From positions 331,204,001 through 331,268,000 of the forward strand of contig OZ024742.1 in the NCBI GenBank assembly GCA_964016885.1: a stretch of 64,000 nucleotides of DNA, in the 5' to 3' direction. Positions 4,658-60,127 of this stretch are shown here, in pieces. Under the pieces are notes generated by a model. The model was not told where the DNA came from. It saw nothing but the letters and a program-made list of their open reading frames with translations, and made no database searches. This DNA comes from Eledone cirrhosa (taxonomy: Eukaryota). How positions within the stretch are numbered: the first letter of the stretch is position 1; every line of letters begins with the position of its first letter. The position numbers and the translations under genes are program-made.

Positions 4658-5389
4658 TAAATATTAGAATGATCGAGTATCGAAAAATCGGCGCACGAGT
4701 TCACGATAAACAAAATTCGAAATGAGCGGCTGAGGGCTCAATAATTCAGATAAATCAGAGCTATAACTATCGTTAAAATACCGTCACACATAGAACAAGT
4801 CTAAAATCAACCGCACGATAAAAAATCGATAACAGAAGATTCGGGACAATCAGATAAAAAATATCAATAAATTAATAAATTTAAATGAATGTAAAATCTT
4901 ACCCGGACCCACTAGAAAGGTGTTAAATCTAGCTCCTTGGGTTTCTGTAAATCCTTAAACTGTACTCTATCAGCTCACATATAAATATATCAGACTTCTA
5001 GAATTCAGCGGACTGGAAATTTACTTCTTCAACGAGCTTTCGTCCGAACGGATAAGATGGCTAAGACCCAGGCAAAAATACGCACATGGAATTCGGCAAG
5101 GGAGATAACCTCTACATCCGCGAAAACTATTCGAAAAAATGTGGAAATACACATATCGAATAAAAGTGCTCAATAGACATGTTAAAATAAAACAGGAGCT
5201 ATTCATCACTCAATAGAATCGACAAAAAATGAACAATAAAATTAACTGGTGGATAGCTATGTCCAGAGCTAAAAATATTAGAATGATCGAGTATCGAAAA
5301 ATCGGCGCACGAGTTCACGATAAACAAAATTCGAAATGAGCGGCAGAGGGCTCAATAATTCAGATAAATCAGAGCTATAACTATCGTTA
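4658..5389. mobile_element. Small element with ~115-bp direct terminal repeats (pseudo-LTR-like) inside (TA)n
   Basis: aaatattagaatgatcgagtatcg...ctataactatcgtta occurs at 4659-4775 and 5273-5389 with one mismatch seen; both flanks are TA repeats. Confidence 0.7.
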
Positions 5390-5760
5390 TATATATACAT
5401 AATTGTGTCTGTGCATGTATGTATGTCTGTGTGTATAAATCGTATTTCATTGCTCGGTATTATTGATTGATTTTTTGGTTATTTTTCTGCATTTTCATTC
5501 ATACTATTACACACTAAACAACCATTTCCAAATATTTCAACCTGCCCTGTTCACCTTCCCTAAAATAATGTCATCCCTTTCTCTTTGTTTCTATCTTTAA
5601 TTTTCTCTCTTACCCCTCCTCTCTCTCTTTCTCTATGTCTCCCTCTATCTATCTATCTAACTCTTTCTCTCTCTCTCTTTATCCTTCTCTCTCCTCATCT
5701 CCAGCTTGTGTTTAACCCTATTTCCCTCTTTATCCTTCCAGTTTTCTCTTTCCTAGCACT

Positions 5761-5838
<78 letters not shown>

Positions 5839-5961
5839 ATATATATATATAGTAATAATAGTAAATTTGAAGACTAAAATCCAAAGATGGCTCGATAAGG
5901 ATAAATATATATCAAATATATAAGAACCGTAGAGCAAATATTTATTAAAATAACAGATTAA

Positions 5962-6012
5962 AGTTTAAGCAAAGAATCGCTGCTTTCACCCTTAACGGGA
6001 TCTTCTGAAACT
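5962..6012 (-). ncRNA. Type I hammerhead ribozyme, U4A core variant
   Basis: agttt-CAGAAGA-tccc gttaa gggt-GAA-agca gcgattctt tgct-T-aaact; CUU triplet. Confidence 0.65.
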
Positions 6013-6949
6013 AACAAAGTCAATCTGTAAACGCAGAAATGGATATTTCAAAAAACGTTGCAACCGGAGGAAGACAGGAAGACGACACTTTGGTTCTTGG
6101 ATACGTTCGCTGGCAAAGAACGGGAAAAACGAATATAATACGTCATTAATAGGAGCGTTGAAAAACAATTACGCGCAAAGACATAACCACGTTTATGGTA
6201 TAAAAGAGGTCGTAGACTCATGTTCTCTTAGGTGGTTCATAGAGACGTTCTCTGGCAATGAACGAAAAAAACGAAGATAATACGTCATATGTGGGGCGTG
6301 GAGAACAATAGCACGCAAAGATAAAACCACGTAAATGGTATAGCAGAAGTCGTAGACTAAAATTCTAACTAGGAGACCAAATGAATCTTCGCTACATAGT
6401 TAAGAACAAAGTAAATAAATACAATACAGAAGTAATAGAAATAAATAAATACATACGCGCAAACAAATACGTACATACACAAGCATACGCAAAACACTTA
6501 CCATAGGTATACAAAACCACGCACATATAAATATGTGTGTGTAGTATGCGTGTATACAAATAAATAAATAATTATATAAACGTATATAAATAAATAAATA
6601 CGTATATAACAAGCGCACACACATACCTACATGTAAATACACGAATGTACGAAGACGTAAGTCAACCAAAACATGAAGTACATATATACACACACCCTAC
6701 ATACGTACGAACCTGCATACTCACACAGACGCAAAACGCCCGTATACACATAACCAAACCATATGTACCAGAATGTATAAACAAATTATACGCCATAACA
6801 TAAACAATCTAATATACGTACCTGAAGGTATACGTACCTTCACAAAACATACGGGTAATATATACATACCTATGCAAATAAATAATGGTATAAATAAACA
6901 TATACTTAGCTCCCACATCAAGACGTAAAATATCCACGTATAGATCGTA

Positions 6950-8057
6950 CTATCCGTTAGGGTATAAATTGGGGCTGTAATACAGGAAAGTTTTGTGCAA
7001 TTTATGTATACAAGCCGAAAATGCCTCAGATTTTTTGTTTAAGATGTGGTTCGTGGCGAAGAGTATTTCCAGGGCCTCAGCCGCGCAGAGGTCACATGGT
7101 CTTTTATTTCCGTTATACGATCTAGCCCTAGCTAGGATCTCCCAGTGTAACTTATATTGGGTGTGGTTGTCTTTTAGACTCCAGATATAAGCTGAAAGTG
7201 ACGTCATATTCCTTCTTAGAGGGTAACGAAAAGAATGGGTATGCATGTAAAGACGCTGCTTGAATCTATTGGCGGTTAACCCTATGTAGGTACTACGGGA
7301 CGTGGGTGTTACAAACTTACATTTGTAGACAATGTTACTAGAGAGGCATTTTCCGGAAAGGGGGCAATCAACCCAATTCCTACAATTACAGTTAGTACTA
7401 ACTACAGGGCTGCACGTGTTCCTACGGCTAGGTAGTTTAGCTAAATTTGAAGCTGTGATGTTGTGTGCAAGGTTAGGAGTCGTAGAGTAAGACATTTTAG
7501 TAGTATTTCTATTAAAAATGTTACTATATTTATGTGTAGGGGGAAAATGCTTCGTAATAAGGGAAAGAAAGATCTTAGCTAATGGTGTAGCCACCTCCAT
7601 ATTATCTGGTGGGTTATACCAACAAATGCGACGGGATCTATTTCTCCTAGGTCTATTTTCTTACTCTGTATATGCTACCTTATCGACAAATCCACTTCGA
7701 GCAAGAGCTTCCTTGTAATAAGTGGAATGGTCGTTGAAAAAACGCTCGTTGGTGGAAAGACGGGAAAGCCTCAACGAAACGTTTCTTACCAGGTTTTTGG
7801 CTATGCTGGCAGGATGGTTGGAATGCTTACTTATGTAATTAAGCGTATAATTCGGCTTTGTATACGGGTAATACAGCCCATTCAATAGATTGAGGGTAAC
7901 GTCGAGGTAATTAACGATGAGAGATTGGCCTCAACCTGTATAGAGAGGTTGAAGCCTTTAAAGAAGGCTGTGAGTTCTTTTCTGAACCTGTCGCAAGCAC
8001 GAGGTCCGCACTTAGTCATGGTCAAAAGACCATCGTCACGGTACAAACCACCGCCCG
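6950..8057 (-). pseudogene. PLE polyprotein fragment (RT palm/thumb plus GIY-YIG; CxC-x5-C-x5-C linker, Nematis-like)
   Basis: ORFs 7882-8184, 7661-7885 and 6950-7600 are joined by a frameshift near 7913 and a stop at 7661. Confidence 0.9.
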
Positions 8058-9184
8058 CGGGCGGTTGTTTGTAACGTGACGATGGTTTGTACCGTGACGA
8101 TGGTCTTTTGACCATGACTAAGTGCGGGCCTCGTGCTTGCGACAGGTTCAGAAAAGAACTCACAGCCTTCTTTAAAGGCTTCAACCTCTCTATACAGGTG
8201 AGGCCAATCTCTCGGTCGTTAATTACCTCGACGTTACCCTCAATTTATTGAATGGGTTGTATTACACGTATAGAAAGCCGTATGATACGCTTAATTACAT
8301 AAGTAAGCATTCCAACCATCCTGCCAGCATAACCAAGAACCTGGTAAGAAACGTTTCGTTGAGGCTTTCCCGTCTTTCCACCAACGAACGTATTTTCAAC
8401 GAACATTCCACTTATTACAATCAATCTCTTGCTCGAAGTGGATTTGTCGATAAGGTAGCATATACAGAGTACGAAAATAGACCGAGAAGAAATAGATCCT
8501 GTCGCATTTGTTGGTATAACCCACCATATAATATGGAGGTGGCCACACCATTAGCTAAGATCTTTCTTTCCCTTATTACGAAGCATTTTCCCCCGACACA
8601 TAAATATAGTAACATTTTTAATAGAAATACTATTAACATTTCTTACTCTACGACTCGTAACGTTGCACATAACATCACAGCTTCAAATTTTATCTAAACT
8701 ACCTAGCCGTAGGAACACGTGCAGCCCCGTAGTTAGTACTAACTGTAATTGTAGGAATCGGGTTAATTGCCCCCTATCCGGGAAATGCCACTCTAGTAAC
8801 TTTGTCTACAAATGTAAGGTTGTAACACCCACGCCCCGTAGGGCCTACATAGGTTTAACCGCCAATAGATTCAAGCTGCGTCTTTACATGCATACCCATA
8901 CTTTTCGTTACCCTCTAAGAATGAATATGACGTCACTTTCAGCTTATATCTGGATTCTAAAAGACAACCACACCCAATATAAGTTACACTGGGAGATCCT
9001 AGCTAGGGCTAGATCGTATAACGGAAATAAAAGACCATGTGACCTCTGCGCGGCTGAGGCCCTGGAAATACTCTTCGCCACGGACCACATCTTAAACAAA
9101 AAATCTGAGGCAAGTTCGGCTTGTAAACATAAATTGTACAAAACTTCCCTGTATTACAGCCCCACATTATACCCTAACGGATAG
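8058..9184 (+). pseudogene. PLE polyprotein fragment (RT plus GIY-YIG), right-arm copy
   Basis: ORFs 8248-8697 and 8663-9184, with frameshifts near 8200 and 8690 that are absent from the left arm. Confidence 0.9.
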
Positions 9185-10119
9185 TACGATCTATACGTGG
9201 ATATTTTACGTCTTGATGTGGGAGCTAAGTATATATTTTGTTTATACCATTACTTATTTGCATAGGTAAGTATATATTACCCGTATGTTTTGTGAAGGTA
9301 CGTATACCTTCAGGTACGTATATTAGATTGTTTATGTTATGGCGTATAATTTGTTTATACATTCTGGTACATATGGTTTGGTTATGTGTATACGGGCGTT
9401 TTGCATCTGAGTGAGTATGCAGGTTCGTACGTATGTAGGGTGTGTGTATATGTGTACTTCATGTTTTGGTTGATTTACGTCTCCGTACATTCGTGTATTT
9501 GCATGTAGGTATGTGTGTGCGCTTGTTATATACGTATTTATTTATTTATATACGTTTATATAATTATTTATTTATTTGTATACACGAGTACACACACATA
9601 TTTATATGTGCGTGGCTTTGTATACCTATGGTAAGTGTTTTCCGTATGCTTGTGTATGTACGTATTTGTTTGCGTGTATGTATCTATTTATCCCTATTAC
9701 TTCTGTATTGTATTTATTTACTTTGTTCTTAACTCTGTAGCGGAAATTCATTCGGTCTCCTAGTTAGAATTTTAGTCTACGACATCTGCTATACCATTTA
9801 CGTGGTTTTGTCTTGGTGTGTTATTGTTCTCCACGCTCCACATATGACGTATTATCTTCGTTGTTTTCGTTCATTGCCAGAGAACGTCTCTATGAACCAC
9901 CTAAGAGAACATTAGTCTACGACCTCTTTTATACCATACACGTGGTTCTGTCTTTCCGCGTAATTGTTTTTACCGCTCCTATTAATGACGTATTATATTC
10001 GTTTTTTCCCGTTCTTTGCCAGCGAACGTTTCTACGAACCAAAGTATCGTCTTCCTGTCTTGCTCCGGTTGCAACGTTTTTTGAAATATCCATTTCTGCG
10101 TTTACAGATTGACTTTGTT

Positions 10120-10170
10120 AGTTTCAGAAGATCACGTTAAGGGTGAAAGCAGCGATTCTTTGCTTAAACT
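10120..10170 (+). ncRNA. Type I hammerhead ribozyme, U4A core variant (right arm)
   Basis: Same fold as 5962-6012 with one stem II mismatch. Confidence 0.6.
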
Positions 10171-10293
10171 TTAATCTGTTATTTTAATGAATATATATAT
10201 ATATATATATATATGCTAACACACACATACACACTCATACGCAATCGGACATAAATACATACACAAACAGACACACACACACATATATATGTA

Positions 10294-10685
<392 letters not shown>

Positions 10686-11124
10686 TATGTAAGTGTGTGT
10701 GTAATTGTTTGTCACAATTTCTTCTACTTCTTTCACATATTGTATTTGTCTTTTCTCCCTGTGTTTCCGTCATGCACTATGACATTCCTTAACTGAAATT
10801 ACAAACACATAAATCTTCTATAAAATATTGAAACCAATTCAATAGAGACGATAACGTTTTTGATAGAATAAAAGAACCCTCAAATAACAGTGAAAATATG
10901 ATCGTACCAAAAGAAATTATCAACCTTTTAATCCCAAACACTGCTGAAAATAAGTGAACTGGAGTGATTGAGCCGTAGAAAAAAGTCTACACTACTATGA
11001 ATGTTCGCATCCTGTACGCCAAATCTAAAAATGAAAGAATATTTCTGTTCCGTACAAACGAATTGTATGGTATGATACAAATATAAAATTACTATGGCAT
11101 AATATACAGTAATTTGGAAGCAGT

Positions 11125-11630
11125 GAAAAGTCAATTAAATCGACCACAGTGCACTACTGGTAATATATTATCGACCACGTTAGGATTAAACGCAAAGGAA
11201 TTCTCGACGAGATTTGAACTCGCAACCTAAAGGGCCGTAATTCTATGCTGACAATATACAGTAATAATGGTTTCTGATTTAGGCATAACTCCAACAATTT
11301 GGGGGGAGGGAAACGTCGACTAAATCTACTCTAGTGCATTACTGTGTCTTAATTTTATTGACCCTGGAAGGATGCAAGTTAAAGCTAACACCTGCGGGAT
11401 TTGAACTCAGAGCATAAATGACCGTAACTCTATGCTGATAATATACAGTAACAATGATTTCTACTATTGGCACAAGGCCAGCAATTTGGGGGTTGGAGGG
11501 CGAAAGTTGATTAAATCGACACCAGTACATTACTGGTACTTTATTTTATTGACCCCGTAAGAATGAAAGTTAACGCTAATATTGGCGGGAGTTAAACTCA
11601 TAACTTAAATGGCCGTAACTCTATGCTATA
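11125..11630 (-). mobile_element. Cluster of about 3 tandem degenerate tRNA-derived SINE copies
   Basis: Repeated cattactggtac...gaccc...ggatg...gatttgaactc...ggccgtaactctatgct, matching the SINE at 55668-55858. Confidence 0.85.
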
Positions 11631-12174
11631 TAATATAGAGTAATAATGATGATAGTTAATGGGAAGGGGATTCAATCCACTTTGGGTATATCATGAAGAA
11701 AAAGAAAATTAATATTTGCTGGAATCTTACTAGAGAAAGTGAAATGTCATTACATAAAAACGAAACCACATTTACGAAAGGTTTCCAAAGACTCAAAGAT
11801 TCAAAACTCAAATTAAAAGCAAACAAAGCCAAATAATTGAAAATAAATCCGCTCCATTGTCAGTACGATGCGAAAATATCAATATACACTAACTTAGCGG
11901 AGTTATAGTTAACAATGGCTCAAAGTTGTAGACTAAGGGTAGAAACATGAGATCTGATTTTAGTAGTTCGCTACTACTACTACTACTACTACTACTCTAC
12001 TACGTCTTCTTCTTAGAAGTTCGTGTGGGCAGGTCCCTTAAGCACGCTCTCCAGCAAGTACTGTCAAAGGCAACCGTCTTCAATTGATCCGCCTGGAGCC
12101 AAACGTAAACAGTTTTTAGTTTTCCTAAGACGTTCTAACCATAAAACCTGTAGTATCGCAGGTGTGATCTGCCA

Positions 12175-12238
<64 letters not shown>

Positions 12239-12329
12239 TCCATGTCTTGTCTATTTTTCTCTTTCACTTCAGCTGTAGAAACGGCTTCAGATTCTACTCT
12301 AACTTCACATTTTTCCTCCTCTGCAGGTT

Positions 12330-12579
12330 CCCTTAAACGTTCAATAATCCGAGATATTTGTACTTTAGTTAAGCAATCCTTCATCCTAATCATCTTCACT
12401 GGATTAATTAGTTTATTTTCTGACATCGAAAAAACATGTTCTTTTCCATTGAAAGATCCAAAGTACGTCATCCTGTAGATTTTCTCTTTCATGACGTGTA
12501 ATGAGAGTAGGATACTTTTTTTCCGTCCACCTGTAATCTGTTGCTTTATAATGGCTGCTTGGGGCCAGAGCATTTCCAC
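12330..12579 (-). pseudogene. Possible L1/Tx1-type ORF2 C-terminal relic
   Basis: MKEKIYR...KLINPVKMIRMKDCLTK loosely resembles the Tx1 C-terminus at 19893; weak similarity. Confidence 0.3.
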
Positions 12580-12761
12580 GAGGGATCCAAATATGCCGGG
12601 CGAGAGCGATTCACCTTAATTAGTTGTAACGTCATTCACGCCAATAATTATCACATGATTCTAGGAGTGTGGTTTACGCGGTCTTACTTCCCAGGAGTAT
12701 TTTCTTTGAGACATTATCTATATTTTACCTGCCTTGCCTGGTTCACGAGTATATTTACGAT

Positions 12762-12979
12762 GGTTTCTTATATAGGCACAAGACGAACAATTTGGAGGGA
12801 GGGGAAAGTCGATTAAATCGACCCAAGTGCGTGACAGGCAATTTATGTTATCAACCCCGTAAGGATGAAAGGCAAATTAAACCTCGGCGGGATTTGAAAT
12901 CAGATCATAAAGGGCTGTAACTCTTTGCTGCAAAGCATGGTGTCCGACGCTCTACCGATACTGCCAATCCGCTGCCCTT
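12762..12979 (-). mobile_element. tRNA-derived SINE, full length
   Basis: The minus strand has an A-box-like tggcagtatcgg, a B-box-like gatttcaaatcc and the central cctttcatccttacgggg. Confidence 0.9.
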
Positions 12980-13764
12980 AACAAGTATATTTATAATAAT
13001 AATTATTAATATCATGCGCACCATTAAACGAATTATTAAAATTATCATCATTACTATTATGATTATAGTTTCTTTACATGATTCCCGTACTGTGTATATG
13101 GTGTTATTACTATTGCGGCTGTGGTTGGTTTTGTTGTTTCTGCTGCCTGTTTTGCTAGTCATTGTCATCCATATTGTTATTACTGTTATTACTATTGAAT
13201 TACTGTTATTACTAATGAATGTTTTTGTTGTGAATTAATTGTGGGAAATTGTTGGTGGCGGTGAAGGAGTAGTGGGGAGAGTGGTGTTGGAGTTTGTGCG
13301 CCGTTGCTGTTTTTGTGTTTTGTCTAGGTTAACTTTTGTAGGCCTAACAACAGGATATTGTTGTTGTGCGTGTTTTTCTCGACTTTCCACTACACCATAA
13401 TGGCTGGCCATGTAAATAAAGTAGAACAAATAACTATTATTCTATATCAAGAATGTCACGAGCCATTTGTTCTATTTAGAGATGGAGTCAAACAAATGAC
13501 TGATTATAATATATATCTAACATATAATTATCTGTCAGATATATATTAATTGTTTATATTTTAATATCTTAGGTGGTCTTCATATGGCAATGTTTAGAGT
13601 ACATCTAAGGCAGCCAATGATTCGATTATGACTTCAAAATGTTCTTGCTCGACAATCTGCAGATTTCCCACTTCAGCTTTTTTTCGTTCAGTCTTTTTCT
13701 TTTCTTTCTTACTCAAATACGCTGCCATTCTTTTGTGATGCTACATGCAACAATTCCAATATCA

Positions 13765-13921: not shown

Positions 13922-14104
13922 AGGTGAATTGGTAGTATCGTTAGTGGGTTTGGACGTCATTCTTTCCAGCGTAGTTACGTCAATTTACGATCTGAGTTCA
14001 AATCCCGTCGAGGTTCACTTTGCCTTTCATCATTATGGGATCGATAAAATAAAGTACCAGTAATGGACTGAGTAATTGGTGGCCTTGTACCAAAAGTAGA
14101 AACA
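13922..14104 (+). mobile_element. tRNA-derived SINE
   Basis: gagttcaaatcccgtcgagg...gcctttcatc...gtcgataaaataaagtaccag-like sequence. Confidence 0.88.
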
Positions 14105-14532
14105 CTTTTTTTTTCTTCTTGCTGTTGTTGTCGCTAGTATCGGTGTTAATGCTGTTTCTATGGAAGTGTTGGTGTATATGGTGATGGCAGTAGTATTACT
14201 AGTAGTAGTAGCAGCAGCAGCAGCAGTAGTAGCAGAAGCCTCAGCAACGGCAGAAGGGTGAAAAGCGATGAACAATCTGAAAACGTGGATGAAGATCATG
14301 ATGATAATGGGAATGACAATAATGATGATAAATGAAAAAGAATGAGAAAAATGTCAAAATATGTCTGTTTATAAGAATGTGATGAAGATGGAGAGAAGGG
14401 GAATAACAGAGAATAATACGAAAATAATCAAATGATTGAAGTGGAATTGAAAGAATAATAGTTTTCTACTTCATCCGTTCAATTACAGTTATCTCTCAAT
14501 CTCAAACTTCTCTCCGACATATTTATAAGTTA

Positions 14533-21522: not shown

Positions 21523-21994
21523 GATAAGCAGAACAAGTAAAATTCAATCAATTTTTCAAAATACATTAAAAAATATAATATAAATATTTACCTCTTCTAG
21601 TGGCCCTTATATATATATATATGTGGGGGGGTGTATGTGTGTGTGAGTGTGTGGGGGCGTGTATGTGTATGTGTGTGTGTATGTGTGGGTGCATATGTGT
21701 AAAACTGTGGGTTTGTATGAGTGAGGAATAATGGAAGAATAACTCCGAAGATGATATAGATGCTTCTATAAGATTATTGTTATAGTTGTGGAGGTTCATA
21801 TTTGTGTAATATTGCCAGAATTAATAACAGAATATAAGAATAGATATATATATAATAACTCCGAAGAGGATATATACGTTTCTATAAGAATACATGGATA
21901 AAATGCAAGAGGGGTAGGTTAATAAAAATGGTGAAAACGTGGCTCAAGCTACATTATTAATATTTAAATAGTTACGTCCAGCATAGTTACGTTC

Positions 21995-22133
21995 AGCATA
22001 GTTACGTCCCTTTACGATCTGAATTCAAATCCCGCCGAGGTTGACTTCGCCTTTCATCCTTACGGGGTCCATAAAATAAAGTACCAGTAATGCACTGGGT
22101 AATTGCTGGCCTTGTGCCTAATGTAGAAACAAT
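21995..22133 (+). mobile_element. 5'-truncated SINE with a stuttered 5' junction (agcatagttacgt repeated)
   Basis: Matches the SINE consensus; about 15-bp unit repeated at 21968-22010. Confidence 0.88.
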
Positions 22134-22242
22134 TATTAATATTTAAATATTTCTACATATTACAATCTGATAATTGACTCAAGGAAGAACACACGCACGC
22201 GCGCTCACGCACACATACACACACACACACATATACACACAA

Positions 22243-25931: not shown

Positions 25932-26106
25932 ATACTTGGGGAGGATCATAATATTGCCAGAAATAATAACAGAAGACACTCACTCTTTGGTCTGTTTTCG
26001 CTTCTCTATCATTTATATCTCCACAGTTAATTTATTTGGCAATCAATGTTTATCATTGATTGACCAGTGGTTAAAAATACACCTATAAATATATATATAT
26101 ATAGTC

Positions 26107-26150
26107 TATCAAAGTTCTTTCGTCGCATAGCTGCAACATCATTAGTGGTA
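26107..26150 (-). ncRNA. Degenerate hammerhead ribozyme
   Basis: tacca-CTAATGA-t gttgca gcta tgcgac-GAAAG aa CTT-tgata; G5 is mutated. Confidence 0.6.
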
Positions 26151-27426
26151 CTATTATGTTTCCTTCCATTGTATTACATGTAATGTCTACGCGATTTTTT
26201 ATTGAATTAAATTATTTATTCATTCTTCTCTCTGTCTCTGCGCGTACGTTTGCGTGTGTGTATAATGTTTGATGTGTGTGTTCGCGTTTGATTGTATGTT
26301 TTTGTTTTTGTATTCTGACTTTGTTCACTAGTGCGTGGTTATATGTTTGTTGTTATTGTTCTTGTGTATATATTTATGTATGTATTTATTTATTTATTTA
26401 TATTTCCCTTAATCCATATTGTTTGTTTCGGTCGTTGTTGTTATTCCATTCGTTCTTTCTGTTCAACTTCGGTCTTCTTAGGTACAGCCAAAAAGACAGA
26501 ATCAGAGTATACAAAGTGCCACGGAGAAATATAAGACACCCATAGAAATGGACATGAAAAGAATGTGCCCATTATGCAGGAGCAAACGATGGGATAGCAA
26601 ACGATAGGACTAAACATGAGGGAAAGACACTTCATGATACGACAACCGAAGATACCAGAGTGGCATGTTCGTGGATACTACCCCTGGAGGGAAATTAGCT
26701 AAGCAAAGTAGAAAGGCTCTAAGAAAGACCTCTAAGCATTAAAGTGGTAGAAAAGCCAGAAACTACCATAAATTCATTGATCAGCAAGACAGACCCCTTT
26801 AAGAAATCCTACTGTACAAATAAGAAATGTAATATATGTCAAATGAACCCCCGGATAAATTGTAAAATTAGAAATGTAGTGTATAGCATAAGATGTACAG
26901 AGGTACCTTGTAGAAACATGACAAAACATACAAGAAAGAATAGACCAACACTGGGGGAAACTAAAAGGTAAACAAAAAACGGTTCAGTACTATATGACCA
27001 CGCCAGACAAATACATGACTGTAATATAGACAATATAAACATTAAAATAACATCTAAGTATAAAAATGACTCAACAGGTAGACAAATCAGAGAAGCAACT
27101 GAGATAGAACTAAGAAAACCGAAGTTGAACAGAATGAACAAATGGAATAACAACAACAACCATACCCAAACAAAAAATACTGACTTAAGGGTATATAAAT
27201 AAATAAATATATACCAAAGTACAATCACAACAAACACATATAAACACACACTTGCGAAAAAAGATAGAATGTATAAACAAAAACGCATACATTCAACCGC
27301 GAAACAAAACATTATACACACACGCAAACGCATGCGCAGAGAGAGAGACAAAAATAAATAAATAAATTAATTGATTAAATAAAAAATGGCGAGGACATTA
27401 CAATACAATGGAAGGACACATAATAG

Positions 27427-27470
27427 TACTACTGAGGATGTTGCAGTTGTGCGGCGAAAGAAATTTGATA
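27427..27470 (+). ncRNA. Hammerhead ribozyme
   Basis: tacta-CTGAGGA-t gttgca gttg tgcggc-GAAAG aa ATT-tgata. Confidence 0.65.
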
Positions 27471-28038
27471 GACTATATATATATAGTTATATCAATATAC
27501 CATCCATAGTTGTAGCTACTGATAAACATTTACTAAAATATAACGAATGTAATGGAAAGAAAAACCTTAATATTAATACTCACAACACATGCACCTTGGA
27601 ATATTACCGGAACAATTATCACATTGCATCCACCATAAACTTCATAGAAATTGCTTTTCATACCCACATTTCTATGTCTGCTTAATATGCTTTTATACCT
27701 GTATTGTATTATGTGATACATTTACCATACTGTGATATATATGCTTAGAACCATTGCTTGTTTCTTACCTGGTTATTCTGTACATGCCTAATACCTCTGC
27801 ACTCTCTCCATACGTTTGCTTATGTACCGCAAATGTCTTCGTTTTACGAGTAACTTTCTTCTTTAATTTCTCTATGATTGTTGTATTATTATTTTATAAT
27901 CTTTGTCGCATCCACTGATATTGACTACCTCATCTTCACTCTTTAAATATGACATTGTTAGTGACAACACTAACATCTACGTATCTTTACGATTGTTCTG
28001 TGGAATAGGAATTTAATTATATGTCTAAACTTTGCTAG

Positions 28039-29926: not shown

Positions 29927-29995
<69 letters not shown>

Positions 29996-30086
29996 CGAAG
30001 TAAATGTGGTAAGGAACCAGATGGACCATAATGCACCAAAGTACTCAATACTTGGGGTAGTAGAGTGGGTAATATGAACGAGTAGG

Positions 30087-30182
30087 ACCCCGACGGCTGA
30101 GTTCATGCCGTTTCGACGGCTAATTCTGGACTAAATGAACATTTTTATCCCGGTAAATGAATAGCCGAACTTCTCAGGGGGT
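30087..30182 (-). ncRNA. Hammerhead-like motif with atypical CUGAGAA core
   Basis: acccc-CTGAGAA-gttcggcta[..]tagccgtc-GAAACggc...gccGTC-ggggt. Confidence 0.6.
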
Positions 30183-30632
30183 AATTCCATATATGGTAAA
30201 AGTGATTGTCACAAGGTTTGGGCAAAGGTTTGTTGTTGAGAAACATGATTCTATCATGGCATTTTGTGGAAGGTATGGGTAGCTGAGCATGCCAGTAGAA
30301 GAATGAGGGAGAGGGAGTGGGGGAAATCCAGTCTTGCGTTGAAAGTAACAACTACAGCAGAATCCTAAGGATAAGGGGTCGAGAGAAGTATACTAGAGAG
30401 GGGGAGAGGGGAGGAAGCCGAAACAATAAGTAAATCTATATGGAGTAAATATATATAAAAAAAAATATATTAAAACACACAATTTCTGGTTACTATTCCC
30501 CTTCCACAATCATCAAATCTCTTACTGGTACTGCTAAACTATAGAAAAGTTTAATAGGTGGGATGGAATACTAAATACGAGATTGTAGTGAAAGAATTTT
30601 ATGAGTTAGTAGTAATCGGCCAAATCTTTTAT

Positions 30633-30960
30633 AGCTTATATAGGATTAACTGCTTGTGACTTCAAGACCCGGCTATACCAATACAGACATACTTTCCGAA
30701 ACCCGGCCCGGCGTCACGCCACTACACTTTCGGGCCTCATCTGGGACCTCAAAGATAAAAGTATAACCTATAATCTCACTTAGAGCTGACTGTCCAGAGC
30801 CAACTCTTACACGAGAGGGCGCCGCCCGTGTAACTTATGCTCGGAGGAAGCATTACAAATGCTGTTTTCGACGGACCAACTCCTAAACAAGAAAGACGAA
30901 CTGGTAACTGCATGCAAACACAGATTGCCTAGGACTTACCTCGCCCTCAAACCCCATAAT
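30633..30960 (+). pseudogene. GIY-YIG endonuclease C-terminal half
   Basis: AYIGLTACDFKTRLYQYRHTFRN...TTLSGLIWDLKD...CNLCSEEALQML...LLNKKDELVTACKH, with two stops. Confidence 0.9.
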
Positions 30961-32071
30961 GACCCGGGGGGTAGACAAGGGCTGTAACACCCCACTTGCC
31001 GACTTTGTAATGGGTAACCCCTTATTACAAAGGTAGACGTAAGATTTTCTTATATATTTTTTATCGTTTCCTCTATATTTCCTTCTTCTCCACATCCCTT
31101 CCTACTCCTTCCACCCCAGATGTCCTTCTTTGTCGTCGTTCTTTTCACCTTCTCGACCACCCCAAGGCAGCACTTCAGTTCTCTGTAGCCTCAGTACCCC
31201 CACACACCCCTATTCTATGATTGAATTAGCCGATTCCGCTTTTTATAGCAGATGTTCTAGACCCCAGATACTTGATTTCTTATCTGATTGCTGCCCCATT
31301 TCCGTGATTTCTTGATTTCTTAGTGGTATCTCTGCTTTAGTTTCTCGTATATCAGTATTTATTTTTTTTTTTTTTGGTGGATCCTGAATTAATTTTTCGT
31401 ATTAAATTTTTCGTATTAGTTTTTCATATATATCCTACGAGCATTTATGTAGTTTGTATTAGCATTTATGTATTGTAGCAGTACTCTTATATATCGTATT
31501 AGTATTCATTTTCGGGATTCTGAATAAATATTTCGTATTAGTTTCGGGGCTCTGAATTATTATTTCGTATTAGTTTTTTTTTAGTATCTTGGCCCCCTAC
31601 ATGTTGACATGTCATTGTAAGATAGATTTGGTCGATTACTACTAACTCATAAAATTATTTCACTACATTCTCGTATTTAGTATTCCGTCCCACCTATTAA
31701 ACCTTTTTATAGTTTAGCAGTACCAGTAAGAGATTTGATGATTGTGGAATGGGAATAGTAACCAGAAATTGTGTTTTACTATATTTTTTATATTTTTCTA
31801 TATATTTACTCCATATAGATTTACTTATTCTTTCGACTTCCTCCACCCTCCCCCTCTCTAGTATACTTCTCTCGACCTCATATCCTTAGGATTCTGCTGT
31901 AGTTGTCACTTTCGACGCACGACTGGTTTTCCCCCACTTCCTCTCCCTCTTTCTTCTACTGGGAAGTTCAGCTACCCCTACCTTCCACAAAATGCCATGA
32001 TAGAATCATGTCTCTCAACAACAAACTTTTGACCAATCCTTGTGACAATCACTTTTACCATATATGGAATT

Positions 32072-32167
32072 ACCCGCTGAGAAGTTCGGCTATACATTTA
32101 CCAGGATAAAAATGTTCATTTAGTCGAGAATTAGCCGTCGAAACGGCTTGAGCTCAGCCGTCGGGGT
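32072..32167 (+). ncRNA. Hammerhead-like motif with atypical CUGAGAA core (second arm)
   Basis: 6-bp stem III acggct/agccgt, GUC triplet and stem II cggcta/tagccg. Confidence 0.6.
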
Positions 32168-32177
32168 CCTACTCGTT

Positions 32178-32238
<61 letters not shown>

Positions 32239-32932: not shown

Positions 32933-34520
32933 ATATAAGATCAAAAGATGGTTAAAGGAGTTCCATGTATTTTATTATGCGCATTTCAAAAACAAACATC
33001 ATCATGCAATAATATTTGTGTTTTCATCAGATAAAACAGGAGAACATGATATGAAGGCTAAAAAACACTTGTGGATAGTGCAGTTTTAAATCAACATATG
33101 AAAAGTATTTTTAGATTGATGTGTGATATTGGGGAAAATATTTTATTTAGAGAGGGGGGGGTGGAAAGGATGAAAAAAGGGGAGGAGATGAGATTGAAGG
33201 TGGAGAGGGAGAGATGGGTGATAGAGAGAAATATATATTGTTTTACATAGAGAGGTTGAAAACCGTTGGAAGATAATGTATAAATTAAAAGAATTTGAAA
33301 ATTAACGAAGGGAAAAATATGTACGAGGAAAAAATATTTTATTTAGAGAGGGGGGTGGAAAGGATGAAAAAAGGGGAGGAGATGAGAGTGAAGGTGGAGA
33401 GGGAGAGATGGGTGATAGAGAGAAAGAGATAGTTTTTATAACTGAGAAAAGATATATTGTTTTACATAGAGAGGTTGAGAACCGTTGGAAGATAATGTAT
33501 GAATTAAAAGAATTTGAAAATTAACGAAGGGAAAGAGAGGGAGTTGATATGTATTGATATTAAAAAGTTTGAAGATAGAGAGAAAAAATAATAATTGCGG
33601 ATGAATATTCTAACGTCAAAAGGGGTATGTTTATAAGTATTATGGCAATTTCAAAATTGACGAAGAGAAAAAATTATTAAGGTTTGTGTGTAGAAGTTAA
33701 AGTTTGTATATTAAAGGAATTGATAATATTTGCGAAGAAAGAGTTAATATGTATTTAAAATTATTAAGGTTTGTGTGTATTAGATGATTTGAGAAAAATA
33801 ATGTGAAGTTAAGGTTTTTATATTGAAGGAATTGATAATTTGTGCGAAGAAATAGTTAATATGTATTAAGAATGTGTTAGTTGATGGGAAGAAAAAAATA
33901 TATTATTAAGGATGAATATTCTAGCGTCAAAAAAAGGAGGAGAGGGAGTTAATGTATTGAGATTGAAAAGTTTGATGATGGAGAGAAAAAAAAAATAATA
34001 ATTGCGGATGAATATTCTAACGTCAAAAAAACAAATGTATATGTTATGAAGGATTTTACAAGGTGAAGATAGAATGAGGGTAATGAGTAAACAAGTATTA
34101 TAGAGTGTATAATGCCCTTTGAAGTAAGGTAGGAAGAATGGGTATATTTTAAAGAGGTGTATGTATATGTGCCTTTGAGAAAAGATTCTAAATTGATAAA
34201 GAATTGAATATTAGCTGTATACTTTGTGAAAGGTCCTATGGAATTTATGCAGGCAGATAGAAAACAAATCTGTACGTCTATTTATTATAGAATCTAGATT
34301 AGAGATAATGGTAAATTTTTCATTTAGGCAGAGATTACAGATTTTAGATAGAGAGCTGTTCAAGTATGAGGACGCAGAAGAAACCTTCTTCCAAAAGATG
34401 GTATATTTAATGTTTTTGTCTTTCAAGGACCATATGAGTTCTGAGATAGCCGTGTTGGTTCTTTTAAGTTTGTATTTAAAAGATGAATGATGATTATAGA
34501 GACGAGCTTTAAAAGAGGTG
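32930..34520 (-). mobile_element. PLE 3' part: GIY-YIG C-terminus (34211-34520) plus long 3' UTR
   Basis: STSFKARLYNHHSSF...TAISELIWSLKD...CNLCLNEK...IINRRTDLFSICLH; the terminus matches 54740-54945. Confidence 0.9.
32970..33036 (-). ncRNA. Type I hammerhead ribozyme
   Basis: ttttat-CTGATGA-long stem II-GAAA tgcgc ATA-ataaaa; palindromic stem III ATGCGCAT. Confidence 0.88.
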
Positions 34521-34859
34521 GAATAAAGCTAGCGGGGACTAAATTCCAAAGCACTGAAAAAATTCACTGCCTCTGGTCAGTGGCAGATTCTAAAGAATCA
34601 ATCACGTGACACTGAGGTTAATCAGTGAGGAGTGGGGTGGTATTATGACAAGAGCCTACTAATACCATGAATCAGCAGTAAATTCTGGCAAGTTTTACTC
34701 AATAAATAATTTGGAGATAAATATAGAGGATTAGTATATCTCCAAATTATTTGTTGAGTAAAACTTGCCAGAATTTACTGCTGATTCATGGTATTAGTAG
34801 GCTCTTGTCATAATACCACCCCACTCGTCACTGATTAACCTCAGTGTCACGTGATTGAT
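34521..34859. repeat. Snap-back hairpin (arms about 34597-34718 and 34737-34859) derived from the 24745/25412 family
   Basis: Near-perfect 122-bp inverted repeat with 2 mismatches seen; 34525-34660 aligns with 24978-25110 and 25751-25783. Confidence 0.92.
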
Positions 34860-37420
34860 ACTACTAGTCTGAACAGATCTGGCAATGCATTACCACCAGA
34901 ACAGTCCTTATCTACTAGCAATCCTACGTGTAATGCATTACCACTTGAGCCAACCAATAACACCCGGAAGTGCAATTGTAGAGTGAGTGCTAACTGCCTT
35001 TTAAACGGTAACTGCCTTTCTAAGAACATTGTCTATGCTTGCGAAGTTATAACTAATTCCTCTAATAGAACTTATATAGGCTCTACATCTAACACTTTTA
35101 AGACTAGGTTTAACTCTCATATCTCTAATTTCAAGCATGTTAAGTTTAAGAATTCTACTTCTTAAGCACATTATATCTGGGATCTTAAGGGAGCTAATAT
35201 ACCATATAGCCTTAACAGGCGTTTAGTAGCACGTTCTAACCACCTTTCTACACATACTAAGTTTTGTAATCTCTGTATCCTCGAGACACACTCTATAATC
35301 TTCTCTAGCGCATCCTTAATAGAAAGTCTGAGATATTCTCTTCTTGCCCCCACGCTATTTCTAATTCATACTTATATTATAAACCTAAACGTTCTAGTAG
35401 TACAAATTGTACCCATTAGCTGATATATTCCATTATTTATTTTTTAGTTTAGGATCTTTTGTTTGCCAACATTATTATTATCATTGGTTTTGATGACTCT
35501 TTATTCTAGCTCTCATAATCTTTTGGCTACTGTACCATATCTATCTTCTTACGCATTAAATTTTCACTATTACACCTTATGAATGTATATAAGATTATAT
35601 ATTTTACGCTATTTATTTTATTTTATTTTATTCTTATTTTTATTTTTATTTTTATTTTTATTCGGATTCTTCTTTGGACTCCCCCCCCCTTCCCCCCCAT
35701 GCGCACATAAACTTATTATCAACCCCTCCAAATTGACTATGATTATGTTTACCCCCCCCCCTCTTTTACGCTCCTTTCTATTATGTAATATAGTATATCG
35801 ACTATTTTTTATGCCCCTTTGCATCCTCCATATATTTCTTCATTTCTGTCCCTATTAGCCTACCTTAATTCTGCTTAAGTCAGTTTTTTAGATATCGTTA
35901 TGTATATGATAGTAACAAATTTTCATTCCTTTTTGTAAACATTTGTAACGAAATATTAACGTTTATAAACTTTAATGACTTAAACTATAGCTAATATTAT
36001 ACTGCCTTACTGGATAGTTTAAATATTTTTAATATTAATTTATCAAATAGGGTTTTTGAGTCATTTACAGGGGTTGTTTCCTTAGTTTTTACTTAACTAC
36101 TTAACTGCATGTGAGACCTAAATGTATACGTTTGTTTTTTTTTTTTTTATTTCCGGTTGATTCTATTTATTTATTTTATTCTATATTTTATATTTTATAT
36201 TTTATTTGTAATACTACTGTGCATTATATTTACTGTCTGGCACTTACTCACTCATCCATATACATGTCTGTCTACCAACCTTGTAATTATAAGTAATTAT
36301 ATATTATATTATGTTAATTTATTTTATATAATATATTATATTATATTGTAGTTGTTATTGTAATATTGATCCTTATTACTTACCGTTAATTATATGTAAC
36401 ATTATGATATGTTAAACTTTATATATCATGTCAGATGTTTGTACTTTAAGTACCATCAACATTTTTTGGGGGTATTGTACAATTTATTTTTCCTCACCTA
36501 CTCTGTAACCCAGTATGAATTGATTTGTTAACTTGAGTACCATTATATATTGTTTATTATAAATGTTAGTATATTGTATATTATAAATGTTAGTATATTA
36601 TTATTATATTATTATTGTGACATCTATATTGTTTGTGTAAATTAACCGGAGATTATCTATTCTATTATATTGTATTATATAGTATATAATTGTATTATTT
36701 ATTATTTATTATATGTGCTACTTATAATTATAACATATTATTACCTCATGTATATTGGGTAGGTGTATTATTATTATTATTATTATTATTTTCATTCCTA
36801 TCATGCTTATTTTTATATTCAAACTCTTTAATAAGGTTTAATTTGTGCAGTTGAAGATGGATGTGTGTATTGTTGTATGTGTATGTGTGTGTACGTGTGC
36901 GCACATATATACATATGAATATTGTACCTTTTGATTTTTATTGTAATTTTAATGTTGGTAAAGGTATATTATATTATATTAGATTATATTACATTGTATT
37001 ATATATAATTCCTGCTCTATATAACCACCTTTGTTTAGCTCTAGGTTTTTTTTGCTTTGGACTATATTTGTAATATGGTTCTTAATGTTATATACATCCT
37101 CAGTAATTTTTATTATATATTTTTTATTATTTTTATTATATATTTTTGCAATACTTTAGTATATGTACACTCCATATTCTTCGGAGCTTCCGGCTTGTAT
37201 CTGCCGATATTACTTCTTGTTGTTTTAATTGCCCTGATGAGTCCTTAATAGGACGAAACATTGTCGGCTAATAAAGACTTTTGATGTATTGAAGGCTTCT
37301 TTGTTTTACTCTCTTAATTTTTCGGCTCTGTTTAACTACATTGAGCTATACCTTTTACTGTCATTTCTATAATACGAAGAGGGTGTTTAACTCCAACACG
37401 CTCCAGTATTTTAACCCTTA
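34860..37420 (+). mobile_element. PLE 3' part: linker plus GIY-YIG (34860-35400) and 2-kb AT-rich 3' UTR
   Basis: CNCRVSANCLLNGNCLSKNIVYAC...YIGSTSNTFKTRFNSH...YIWDLK...CNLCILE; HHR near the end. Confidence 0.88.
37228..37272 (+). ncRNA. Minimal type I hammerhead ribozyme
   Basis: attgcc-CTGATGA-gtcc ttaata ggac-GAAAC att GTC-ggctaat; canonical core. Confidence 0.92.
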
Positions 37421-37427
37421 TATATAA

Positions 37428-37724
37428 AAATATAGTTTAATTAGGAATAAGTAAAAATTAGTAATAAGTATTGGTTAGTATTCAGTTTTAGTTTTAATTT
37501 TTTACCGGTTGCGCATTTCTAATGCTTTTCAAAAATAACTTCGAGATAGAGCTCCCGTGATGTTTGCTCTAATTAGATGATTAGAGCAAACATCACGGGC
37601 GCTCTATCTCAAAATTATTTTTGAAAAGCATTAGAAATTCACAACCGGTAAAAGCTTAAAACTAAAACTGAATACTAACCAATACTTATTACTAATTTTG
37701 ACTTATTCCTTCTTAAACTATTTT
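37428..37724. mobile_element. Non-coding ~300-bp palindrome with an HHR relic on each arm
   Basis: Centre ctctaat-tagatg-attagag near 37577; arms carry TTGAAAA gcatt aga aatgc GCAAC CG GTA (37498-37536 minus, 37618-37653 plus). Confidence 0.88.
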
Positions 37725-37842: not shown

Positions 37843-38718
37843 ATATTTTGGGAAGTTCAGACTTTCCAATAAAATCCCACACACGTGTTAAATTTCACTT
37901 CACTTGATTATAAACTCCCAGTCGGTTACTTTAATGAACTACTTATGTTGTTATTTTCTGTGTCTCTTTTGTTACCTCATGTATTATGTTTAATTGTACC
38001 GGGAAAACAAATTAATGTTATGCTTTATTTGTCAGCCTTTGTCTTTTATAAATGTCTGCCTCGCTGTACTGGCTTTGTTAAGTGATTACCATACAATTAT
38101 TTATATATATATAAATATATATATGGGGGGGGGTGCAGTTATATTAAAGGTAAAAATACACAAGGGTATATTTAAATGTTGAAATAATCCCATGCATATG
38201 CCAATTTCATTAATTATTTAAATGCCTGTTCCCATAGTCTGAGGGCAGTTAGAACATATGAGGATTTTCCCTCTTAGTCTCATCATATATATATATATAT
38301 GTGTGTGTGTGTGTTCTTTATGAAGCTAGAGTGGTGAAAGTGGAATGGAAGCTCAACAGGTCAGGATTCAATTGACACCTTGGAAAATAAGGATCGAAGG
38401 CCCAGATAGAATTTAGTTTTGTATGAGTCCTTGGTTGTGCGTGTTTATTTATTTAGTTGGGCTTGCATTGTGTGAAAAGCTCAAGTTTATATATATATAT
38501 ATATAATTCTTTTCTGAATTTGTTTAGCAAGATTCTTTATATGAAAACGTGTGTTGAAACCGATATTGTTATGTTTTGGGTGGGACATGTTTCCAATAAG
38601 AAACACACGCACCAGTATCTTTCACCCCAACTTATTATAAATTAAATTTATAAATTTAAGAATTTATAAATTTCCGGTTGGTCGGTTGGTTCCACCACCG
38701 GACGGTTGTTCATATATT

Positions 38719-38761
38719 GTCAACGTTCTTTCGTCACTCATTCGGTGAGCTCTTCAGTAAC
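38719..38761 (-). ncRNA. Degenerate hammerhead ribozyme (left arm)
   Basis: gtta-CTGAAGA-gctcac...gtgac-GAAAG aa CGT-tgac; U16.1 is mutated. Confidence 0.6.
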
Positions 38762-39246
38762 TGGGGATTATTTTCTTTGTTTTTGAGCCTATCCTTTGTT
38801 CTGATCTACGCGATCTTTTTTTTTGTGTGTGTTGTGTGCTTAGTTTGCGCATATGTCACATCCGGGTGTCAATGTGTGTTTATATTTGTTTATTTATTTG
38901 TTTATTTACATGTTACTGGTTGGATGTTTGTTCTACGTGTGTGTGTGTTTTCATTTTGTCCTTAATTGTAAGTTCTGATGTTGCTATCCAATTCGTGTTT
39001 TCTATTCTAGAAAACATGAATGGAATAGCAACATCACAACTTACAATTAAGGACAAAATGGAAACACACACACATAGAACAAACGACCAACCAGTATCAT
39101 GTAAATGAACAAATAAATAAACACATAAAAACACACACAGACACCCAAATGTAACACATGCGCAAGCTAAGCCCACAACACACACAGAAAAAAGATGGCG
39201 TAGGACAGAACAAACGTGACGCACAAAAACAAAGAAAATAATCCCC

Positions 39247-39289
39247 GTCACTGAAGAGATCACATAATGTGTGACGAAAGAACTTTGAC
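39247..39289 (+). ncRNA. Minimal type I hammerhead ribozyme
   Basis: gtca-CTGAAGA-ga tcaca taatg tgtga c-GAAAG aa CTT-tgac. Confidence 0.85.
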
Positions 39290-39698
39290 TATATATGAAC
39301 AACCATCCGGTTGTGGAACCAACCAACCAACCGGAAATTTATAAATTCTTAAAGTTTTTAAATTTTTATTTTTAATAAATTGGAGTGAAAGCTCCTGGTG
39401 CGTCTGTTTCTTATTGGCAACATGACCCTCCCAAAGCATAACAATATATATATATATATATAATATATATATATATATAAATATATTTATATATATATAT
39501 ATGTATATATATTGTACAACAGACATTCAAAAAGGTACTTCAACTCATTTTATTTATGTCTTCCTGTGACATAATGAGAATGCAAATGTCACACGCACAG
39601 GCGTGAATGTTAAGTATATAGGAATGAATACAGCGCACACACATACACATACATAAACACACACGCACACACATACACACTCACACACACACATACAC

Positions 39699-40667: not shown

Positions 40668-40859
40668 GTATAGGATTATCCAAGATGCAGTGATGGTTAA
40701 TTACTACACTGGATATGGTTGACGTACGGTAAGAGGTTACTCTACGAGTTATGGAAGAATTGTTCAAGAAACTTAGTTCCTGATCCTTCAGTATTCCGGA
40801 GTGTATATAAAGAATGAATAATAACAGGTAGACATCATAAAAAGGTAGTTTATTCCGTG

Positions 40860-40971
40860 TGCTTACAAGTGTTTCCACGGTGGTACTGCAGCCTAGTTCC
40901 GCTACGTGCAAATTCACAAGTATTTGCAGAACTCGAATATCCAATGCTGTGACCACTGTTTCCTCAGAGCA
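40860..40971 (-). ncRNA. Hammerhead ribozyme with multi-branched stem II insertion
   Basis: Reverse complement of 42976-43087. Confidence 0.8.
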
Positions 40972-41464
40972 GAATGGTAAATATACAATGTAAAAACCCT
41001 TAAGTGGGGTTGTTGGGGAAGATAGAGTGGAACAGGAAGAGTGAAAAGTAGGGAAGATGGAGAGAGAAGGAAAGATATGCAGGGGTTGGAGAAGTAGGAG
41101 AGAGTGGCTTGTAGATATCTTAATCAAAATGTTATGGTAGGGGTTTTATTAGTTACTTTTGGAGAGATGCGTAGATAGTTGAGGTCGGAATTATTTATTG
41201 CCCCAGAGGTCAAGTTCATAGATGTTGAGAGGGAGGTAGGTCAAAGGTGAGAGAGAGAGAGTGTAATGGATGTAGAGAGAGATATATAGGTAGAGAGGGG
41301 ACAGATAAAGTATATGTGGTGAGTGAACTTTTGGTTTTGTAGTAGTAATCTAGGAATTGTACTGAGTTACCATGTATAGTGATAAGCAGTGTATTGTCTT
41401 GTAGTGTGGGGGAGAAGAGAAGGTTGTTAGCTAGAAAGTGGTGTTGTAGTTACGGGTTCGAATG

Positions 41465-42952
41465 TTAAGTTATTTTATAGTGAGATAATTTAGCTTTTAG
41501 TTTGTGGTTGCAGTATAATGATCGTTCAATTCTATCGTTAAGTAGTTTGTTTTTGGATTTTAGTATGTAAAATAGCTCAAGGTTACATAACCTGCAGTAC
41601 TTCAAACCACTCCGATATGCATTTGCGCTGGAAAGTATATCCCATTTTAAGGTGAAATGTTGGTTGTGTTCACGGAGTTGCCAGGTCTTGTTGGCGAGCG
41701 TGGTCACAAAACGGTGATTCTGATGTTTGATTGAGAATCGATGACGGTACCAGCGAGATTTAAACGATGTGGTGGTAGATCCGATATAATACCATTTCTG
41801 GTCGTCCGATTCAACCGTGCATTGGTAAACAATGTTGGACTTTAGGCATTCATTCTGCAATGGACATCTTTCAGGTAGATGGCAGTTACATGCTTTGTTG
41901 TGGGTAGCGGGTATACCATGGATAGGTTGTGATAGCGGTACAGGTGGGTTGTGCAATATCCGTCTCCCATTTAGTGGTTGGGAGGCAGATATTGCGTTCT
42001 GCCCACCTGTTACTAAAATGTTTTGTTTTGTAGAGTTGTTTAATTGCCTTAAGTTAAGTTTTTTTTATGTATGCTTCAAGGTTTGGTGCCGTGGAGTATG
42101 ATAGTCTAATAGTTTTGGAGTTCAGAATTTTGCTGTACTTATGGGAACTAGGGAAGTGTTTATTGATTAATTTAAAGAATGAAAGAGATAGTTTTGTACT
42201 AATCGAGGCATTAAAAATAGGATTATACCAGATATACTTTCTACAACGTGATTTATTTGGTGGTGAACTTCTATTATTAGTATGTCTGGTAGTATAGTGT
42301 GTGTGTGCTTGTGTTTTAGTCCCCCGGTTACGTATACCTTGATTACTTGTAGAGCTATGTGTGTTGTGGAAATTACTATCGATGTATTCTATTGTATCCC
42401 GGTGGTCAGCATTCCTTAATGCATTATTGTAGTATTCAGCATGTTCGCTAAAAATATCAGAGTTAGACGATAGGCGAGAGATTCTAAGAGAAATACTCCG
42501 GGGAACTGATTTGATCATGGAGAGTGGGTGGTTAGAGTTAAAGTCAATATACGTAAGGTTCTCATTTACCTTGTGGAAGGGTCGTATCTGTCCGGTATTT
42601 AAATTAAGAGTTACATCCAGAAAGTTTACTACCTTAAGATTGTATTCGTATGTTATTTTTAGGCCCAGTTCACTAAAAGATTTTCTAATATTTTTCCGTA
42701 GCCTTTCAAGATTTTGGTTATTCAAGTTATTAACTAATAAGAGCCCGTCATCTCTATATATCCCCCCCTGTAGATTACTAAATCTATTATGTAATATGTG
42801 GGCTATGTAAATTCCCACGAGATCCGTGACCTCCGCCGAGTCGTTGGAACCCATGGTAATATCGAAATTTGTGGGTCTGTCCTTACGTTCCCAGTAGCAG
42901 TTATCGAACTTAATAATGGTTTTTCTAGCCTCGAGAATAATATTAATACATT
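41465..42952 (-). pseudogene. PLE RT plus GIY-YIG polyprotein fragment (Nematis-like linker), one homopolymer frameshift
   Basis: FDITMGSNDSAEV, GGIYRDDG, VNFLDVTL, SNHP, WYNP, CNC-x5-CPLQNEC, IVYQC..YIGST; an A8 run at 42059-42066 breaks the frame. Confidence 0.95.
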
Positions 42953-42975
42953 ATTACATTGTATATTTACCATTC

Positions 42976-43087
42976 TGCTCTGAGGAAACAGTGGTCACAG
43001 CATTGGATATTCGAGTTCTGCAAATACTTGTGAATTTGCACGTAGCGGAACTAGGCTGCAGTACCACCGTGGAAACACTTGTAAGCA
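42976..43087 (+). ncRNA. Hammerhead ribozyme with multi-branched stem II insertion
   Basis: tgct-CTGAGGA-a acagtggt[...tgcaaat..atttgca..gtagc..gctgc]accaccgt g-GAAAC actt GTA-agca. Confidence 0.8.
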
Positions 43088-43134
43088 CACGGAATAAACT
43101 ACCTTTTTATGATGTCTACCTGTTATTATTCATT

Positions 43135-43177
<43 letters not shown>

Positions 43178-52168: not shown

Positions 52169-52217
52169 TCTCTCTATATATATATGTACATATATATACA
52201 TATATGTACCTACATAT

Positions 52218-52699: not shown

Positions 52700-52701
<2 letters not shown>

Positions 52702-55660: not shown

Positions 55661-55667
55661 AAAAAGA

Positions 55668-60094: not shown

Positions 60095-60127
<33 letters not shown>

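Follow-up and report, generated by a model that had tools for sequence, protein, structure and literature searches.

In LINE-1 twin priming, primers provided by opposite strands of the target give rise to a 5' inversion that is joined by microhomology; the internal site used by the second primer varies, and the two segments have no overlap. For Penelope-like elements (PLEs), passages of PMC3846280 describe head-to-head inverted copies with palindromes at the junction and a tail on one of the inverted pLTRs, and propose self-priming; an explanation of head-to-head PLEs by hairpin formation or self-priming is thus already in print. The parts of PMC8557442 that treat such copies report an inverted 5'-truncated copy with a one-ended tail, which is put down to endonuclease-mediated resolution, and name the complex tandem and inverted structures of PLEs as unexplained. 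According to the relevant sections of PMC11167929, the Poseidon PLE PAc cleaves and extends both target strands in vitro, its reverse transcriptase (RT) starts at two RNA sites bounding the tail, and the protein is predicted to form a dimer.

The window, i.e. the whole stretch of 64,000 nucleotides of Eledone cirrhosa DNA that was analysed, contains a palindrome whose arms (5851-8057 and 8058-10193) are joined without a spacer and are flanked by (TA)n on both sides. Global alignment of the two arms in the assembly sequence, spanning about 2.1 kb, resulted in 95.5% identity (2017 matches, 94 mismatches, 27 gap columns), and the ORF is directed outward on both sides, so that the arms lie head-to-head; the spacerless palindrome reported in a preliminary description of this DNA is therefore real. 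The features of the locus are as follows, positions in the family unit being prefixed with u:

5765-5851, no strand: (TA)n target, left
5851-5938, minus strand: 89-nt tail (u1-89), on the left arm only; its outer end is site B
5939-8059, minus strand: left arm, a 5'-truncated PLE corresponding to u1150-3259 of the natural unit L074:4069-7327
5962-6012, minus strand: candidate hammerhead-like arrangement with a non-canonical core, recognized by eye
6950-8064, minus strand: left ORF remnant with YRDD, thumb, CxCx5C linker and GIY-YIG, interrupted by a frameshift and a stop
8050-8065, no strand: axis, a 16-bp perfect palindrome centred on CGCG (8056-8059)
8065-8100, plus strand: 18-nt tandem duplication, on the right arm only
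8056-10193, plus strand: right arm, without tail; its outer end is site A
8051-9184, plus strand: right ORF remnant with frameshifts near 8199 and 8688
10191-10215, no strand: (TA)n target, right

The axis lies between 8057 and 8058. Its perfect palindrome, given previously as 8051-8064, is present and two base pairs longer (16 bp, 8050-8065), and the YRDD motif follows shortly after it on both arms, as had been noted (8043-8032 on the minus strand, 8090-8101 on the plus strand). The earlier statement that the whole element is mirrored holds for the 2.1 kb common to both arms; beyond that the mirror is incomplete, because the 89-nt 3' tail of the left arm is absent from the right one, and the 18-nt duplication, 8 nt off the axis, belongs to the right arm alone. 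Each arm has been broken separately, the left one by a frameshift near 7918 and a stop at 7661-7663, the right one by the frameshifts near 8199 and 8688, and each has acquired 31 private substitutions since insertion. Copies that read through the axis position were inspected for a pre-existing micro-palindrome, as the preliminary description had suggested; it exists, but amounts to CGCG (4 nt) only, set in an imperfect stem whose fold is not unusual (z 0.34). A pattern search found the folded junction once in the 3.0-Gb genome. On account of this unique axis and of junction positions that vary along the unit, we rejected amplification of the palindrome as a whole, as would be expected of a MITE or fold-back DNA transposon.

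A natural, intact copy of the family (L075:3566-5704, minus strand) contains an ORF of 712 aa with YRDD at residue 350 and YIG at residue 602. The coding remnant of the locus corresponds to residues 343-712 of this protein and so is devoid of the N-terminal half of the RT; its length of about 370 aa agrees with the reconstructable ORF of about 375 aa claimed earlier. A single ORF coding for RT and then a GIY-YIG endonuclease, partial tandems that produce pLTRs, 5' truncation, inverted copies and an optional tail are all features of EN+ PLEs, bearing out the initial classification as a coding PLE. The L075 protein furthermore carries DKT instead of DKG at residue 119 and RLRWR at residue 39, with R replacing the K of RWK, while a motif search of the protein for GxKF or GxKY found neither, as in the Hydra clade. 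The linker CxCx5Cx5C is found in both window arms, and one of its cysteines is replaced by F in the L075 copy. The motif N..CxH occurs at residue 685, and a CxxC was recognized by eye ahead of the conserved E. The Hydra clade is described as devoid of the CCHH motif; between the equivalents of GIY and YIG, a motif search of the protein showed a lone cysteine. In most of the 70 junctions described below, the two arms run out into TA repeats, which indicates insertion into (TA)n. The Hydra clade is described by these motifs in PMC8557442, the supplement of which lists Hydra-1_Obim and a preference for (TA)n. Judged by its motifs, the locus element is an EN+ PLE of the Hydra clade. A Pfam search yielded no matches for the four arm ORFs and one meaningless match for the full protein, and the domain names used here therefore rest on the motifs and on the alignment in that supplement.

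A hammerhead ribozyme in the pLTR belongs to the description of EN+ PLEs. The candidate hammerhead-like layout at 5962-6012 folds with a z of -0.64, and a search of 5800-8100 against Rfam gave no hammerhead match; only miRNA-shaped matches below the gathering score were returned, two of them produced by the palindrome itself. Folds of the axis, tail and ribozyme regions were no better than those of shuffled sequences.

Three genome searches gave 1062, 953 and 1662 candidates, the best 40 of which were scored in each case. Set 1 consisted of all 39 non-window matches to the RT region among the matches listed, taken as 9.9-kb stretches; set 2 of 38 stretches with 39 tailed 3' ends, a sample picked for the tail; and set 3 of 28 of the 38 matches to the internal 3' region, taken as 3.2-kb loci. 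The natural 3259-nt unit L074:4069-7327 served as mapping reference for all sets. Head-to-head junctions were found in 26/39 stretches of set 1; two of these are bystander insertions, leaving 24 of the 39 anchor copies with an inverted arm. Since inverted arms of 1.3-2.15 kb recur in five copies (L080, L089, L099, L110, L121), mirrored coding sequence is nothing special, and the rarer feature of the locus is its symmetry at such a length. The locus is an ordinary, decayed, long symmetric example of a known and common PLE layout.

The family is apparently young, most long copies differing by 1-2.5% from the column majority. A second copy in the window (62936-64000, running into L100) combines a short tail-less inverted arm with a long tailed one. 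L088, L103, L115, L120 and L138 form a subfamily with a common internal deletion (about u2341-3086), which is present on both arms of L103. In six copies (L093, L129, L131, L136, L205, L221), the head-to-head junction includes a short additional segment derived from another part of the unit, which suggests local fill-in or template jumps. L116 (u3200) and L211 (u3191) have short symmetric junctions within the 3' end, that of L116 being placed on the small stem of the hammerhead-like motif. A search of 24 single-armed copies for short inverted stubs at the 5' end gave a suggestive result for L123 and weak ones for two more copies, and no weight is placed on them below.

The two arms of the locus have 25 minor alleles in common, nine of which are absent from the rest of the 65-80 segments that span the respective columns; in 28 further close matches, five of the nine were absent, three were found once and one four times. 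Kinship was judged by such shared alleles in place of raw distance, which is misleading here because both arms are older than most of the sampled copies; by raw distance the other arm ranks at index 14 and 7 of 52 (counted from 0) and is not the nearest neighbour. When a left-arm stretch is compared with the genome, the first-ranking non-self match among those listed is the right arm (98% vs 95%), and the pair disagrees in 3/60 polymorphic cells, compared with a background of 0.35. Over 20 arm pairs (L137 counted twice), 16/515 polymorphic cells disagreed, the background means being 0.21-0.70. The relationship that the preliminary description had asked to be checked was thus found, the arms being each other's closest relatives by shared alleles, if not by raw distance, and arms derived from different subfamilies, the outcome named there as contrary, were not observed. 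Together with the uniqueness of the junction in the genome, this kinship supports a single insertion event from one template lineage.

The outer ends of the family fall at two sites, A (u3259) and B, located 89 nt further; in tandem copies, the 89 nt up to B open the following unit and precede its ATG. Ends at A are bounded by the end of the query, and extensions of <30 nt would escape detection; a missed extension is disfavoured by the TA runs that lie directly beyond most of these ends. Site A looks like a priming site in its own right, because 9/39 anchor copies of set 1, inspected by eye, end there and have no inverted arm. Among the matches listed, 70 junctions comprise 60 of the type A+B, two A+A, no B+B and eight that were unscorable, the L137 insertion being entered twice and 41 junctions coming from the sample picked for the tail. 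Because of this choice of set 2, the fair test is provided by sets 1 and 3, in which, again among the matches listed, 32 A+B, one A+A and no B+B were observed (9/42 unscorable). A+B thus accounts for 32/33 scorable tail-blind junctions (binomial p 4e-9 against 0.5), in samples composed of top-scoring copies (best 40 of 953-1662 candidates per search).

Inverted arms, a single tail and flanking TA repeats also characterize two other families represented in the window, at 29995-32178 and 38490-39443; the former shows similarity to PLE proteins, and the latter is near-symmetric with a short loop and has relatives that read through its axis. Starting from tailed-end anchors of the family of 38490-39443, the partner end was assigned by eye to the tail-less site in 8/30 cases, was 15 nt short of it in one, and was tailed in none. 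By the same kind of inspection, 6/30 loci of the family of 29995-32178, and the window copy itself, are A+B; an exception is L174, with tail sequence on both arms, one of them 17 nt short. As judged by eye, both families behave like that of the locus.

The lengths of the arms were compared in 46 simple junctions. The B arm is the longer one in 24 and the A arm in 18, and the two are within 20 nt of each other in four. Six pairs (L081, L116, L134, L136, L203, L228) share no sequence at all, the B arm starting inside the tail. Overlaps of 0-10 nt at the junction were found in 50/70 cases. Near-symmetric junctions exceed the expectation for independent truncation within 20 nt (4 vs 1.3, p 0.03) and within 35 nt (6/46 vs 1.8, p 0.003), but not significantly within 10 nt (2/46 vs 0.76). 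Among the pairs, the youngest (0.5-1.1% divergence) already show an asymmetry of 0.8-2.7 kb, whereas the symmetric pair at the locus, with 4.5%, belongs to the oldest; no increase of asymmetry with age was seen (rho -0.30, p 0.19, n 20).

The locus is a decayed head-to-head insertion of a 5'-truncated PLE, and we consider it probable that it arose by two target-primed reverse transcriptions, one on each target strand. The family-wide pairing of A with B (32/33) points to two priming events, and reverse transcription likely starts from two fixed positions on the RNA that are separated by 89 nt. As a fold-back copy is limited to the sequence of its template, tailed arms that are short and arms without any overlap call for two primings or else for a later deletion of the centre. 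The protein of the element, probably as a dimer, would nick both strands of a (TA)n target; one reverse transcription would start at B and include the tail and a second one at A, both probably using a single RNA, and the 3' ends of the two cDNAs would be joined by a few bases of microhomology, followed by fill-in. As a rule, the arms end at different points. At the locus, where both stop at about u1150, both reactions may have run off or stalled at the same place of the RNA and annealed via the self-complementary CGCG; or else, one cDNA end may have formed a local fold-back before capturing the other cDNA. Such a local fold-back is possible and is expected to leave the same sequence as direct annealing of CGCG. 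The 18-nt duplication could be due to slippage at the joint or to a later mutation. Two primings would fit the results for the Poseidon PLE as given in the relevant sections of PMC11167929. A more general reading, towards which we lean slightly, is that PLEs insert by obligate double priming, two RT subunits starting from the fixed sites A and B on opposite strands, the arms being independent cDNAs rather than hairpins, with one tail in each two-armed insertion; the two A+A junctions and the two-tailed copy L174 are exceptions that call for caution. If correct, obligate double priming would account for tail, inverted arm and dimer through a single mechanism.

The preliminary description had instead invoked a covalently closed hairpin cDNA, made by self-primed second-strand synthesis, that was opened and integrated. 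Applied to the family, a cDNA started at B would fold back and its second strand would end at A, and asymmetric arms would result from immediate or later deletion of the centre. The locus by itself fits such a course, with the tailed arm as first strand and the tail-less arm as its copy, both of one genotype and joined at a symmetric, spacerless axis; the surplus of near-symmetric junctions, the several small palindromes of the window with short central loops, and the stem at the axis of read-through copies, imperfect and of ordinary stability as it is, are in line with it. However, central deletions would be required for the 18/46 junctions with a longer A arm and for the six non-overlapping pairs, the strong asymmetry of the youngest pairs and its failure to rise with age argue against later deletion, and A+A is confined to 1/33 pairs even though copies with A as their only end are common. 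We therefore regard the hairpin as an unlikely, though not a negligible, source of this layout; as a mechanism, it is neither new nor the best fit.

DNA-level fold-back events are known to yield spacerless palindromes at micro-inverted repeats, and a single-armed insertion could have been doubled in inverted form in this way during replication or repair. The second arm, however, ends exactly at site A of the element and is followed by (TA)n, the flanks are not mirrored, and the same end rule holds family-wide, all of which makes later doubling quite improbable. Nor does the palindrome look like an assembly artefact from fold-back reads. Contigs of four public runs leave 8062-8085 uncovered, although those of three of the runs, from one sample, match the flanks at 5370-5614 and 10644-11000; this gap weighs neither for nor against an artefact. 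The arms are 4.5% apart, 31 changes being private to either of them, both terminate at sites typical of the family and next to different flanks, and the 18-nt duplication is restricted to one arm, so that an artefact is very improbable. Two separate insertions placed head-to-head, for which raw distance alone would leave room, have next to no probability and are largely refuted by the common minor alleles, by the exclusive ones among them (five of nine missing also from the further close matches), by the best-match status of the right arm and by the lack of a target repeat at the axis.

The window is rich in further inverted-repeat elements. Small ones are located at 37429-37724, 52216-52485, 34594-34862 and 51265-51544, most of them extended at one end; the first three are near-symmetric with short central loops, and that of 34594-34862 is placed between PLE-coding pieces at 34229-35386. 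Other TA-flanked elements with inverted repeats occur at 40810-43137, 59399-62201, 52700-53813 and 26104-27473, and the segment 41456-42947 encodes a PLE protein that is 36-40% like P0001. A 114-bp direct repeat (99%; 4660-4773 and 5274-5387) bounds a 730-bp TA-flanked insert and is possibly a partial tandem. Copies of a short interspersed repeat, which we take to be an octopus SINE, are found at 11143-12980, 13923-14114, 21994-22137, 43953-44145 and 55667-55856.

What gives the locus its value is the one-tail rule of the family, as it renders the open question of inverted PLE structures testable. In octopus, an exceptional share of dsRNA-forming loci and hyper-editing are described in passages of PMC5625713; inverted PLE insertions could contribute to this dsRNA and, if double priming is true, might be a large source of it. 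Neither twin priming of PLEs nor counts of A/B pairing were found in the titles, abstracts and passages of the literature searched; a term search of the text of bioRxiv 10.64898/2026.07.22.740005 gave nothing relevant, and a search of three supplement texts of PMC11167929 found nothing.

By eye, the family protein resembles that of Hydra-1_Obim from Octopus bimaculoides in the supplement of PMC8557442, which likewise has a C-terminal GIY-YIG, DKT, RW[K/R], the CxCx5C linker, CxxC and CxH around the conserved E and N, and a (TA)n target. The family is nevertheless distinct from Hydra-1_Obim in its unit of 3259 nt (vs 2507 nt), its partial-tandem pLTRs and its 89-nt tail, which exceeds the 30-40 nt usually described. 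With the inverted copies of PMC3846280, PMC8557442 (legend to Fig. 2) and PMC8969392, the locus shares the head-to-head arrangement, the junction palindrome and the one-ended tail. The pertinent passages of these three papers attribute the layout to self-priming and the tail to endonuclease-mediated resolution, and contain no count of A/B pairing, no case of either arm being the longer and no non-overlapping arms. Like L1 twin priming, our model involves two primers, opposite target strands and a microhomology joint, but priming takes place at fixed sites with 89 nt between them, and the resulting arms overlap. Poseidon PAc belongs to a different clade, and in the sections of PMC11167929 concerned its two start sites are not tied to inverted arms; it nonetheless resembles the model in the two RT start sites bounding the tail, in cleavage and extension of both strands, in the predicted dimer and in the AT-rich target, and the one-A-one-B rule is a prediction that is directly testable in the existing PAc in vitro system.
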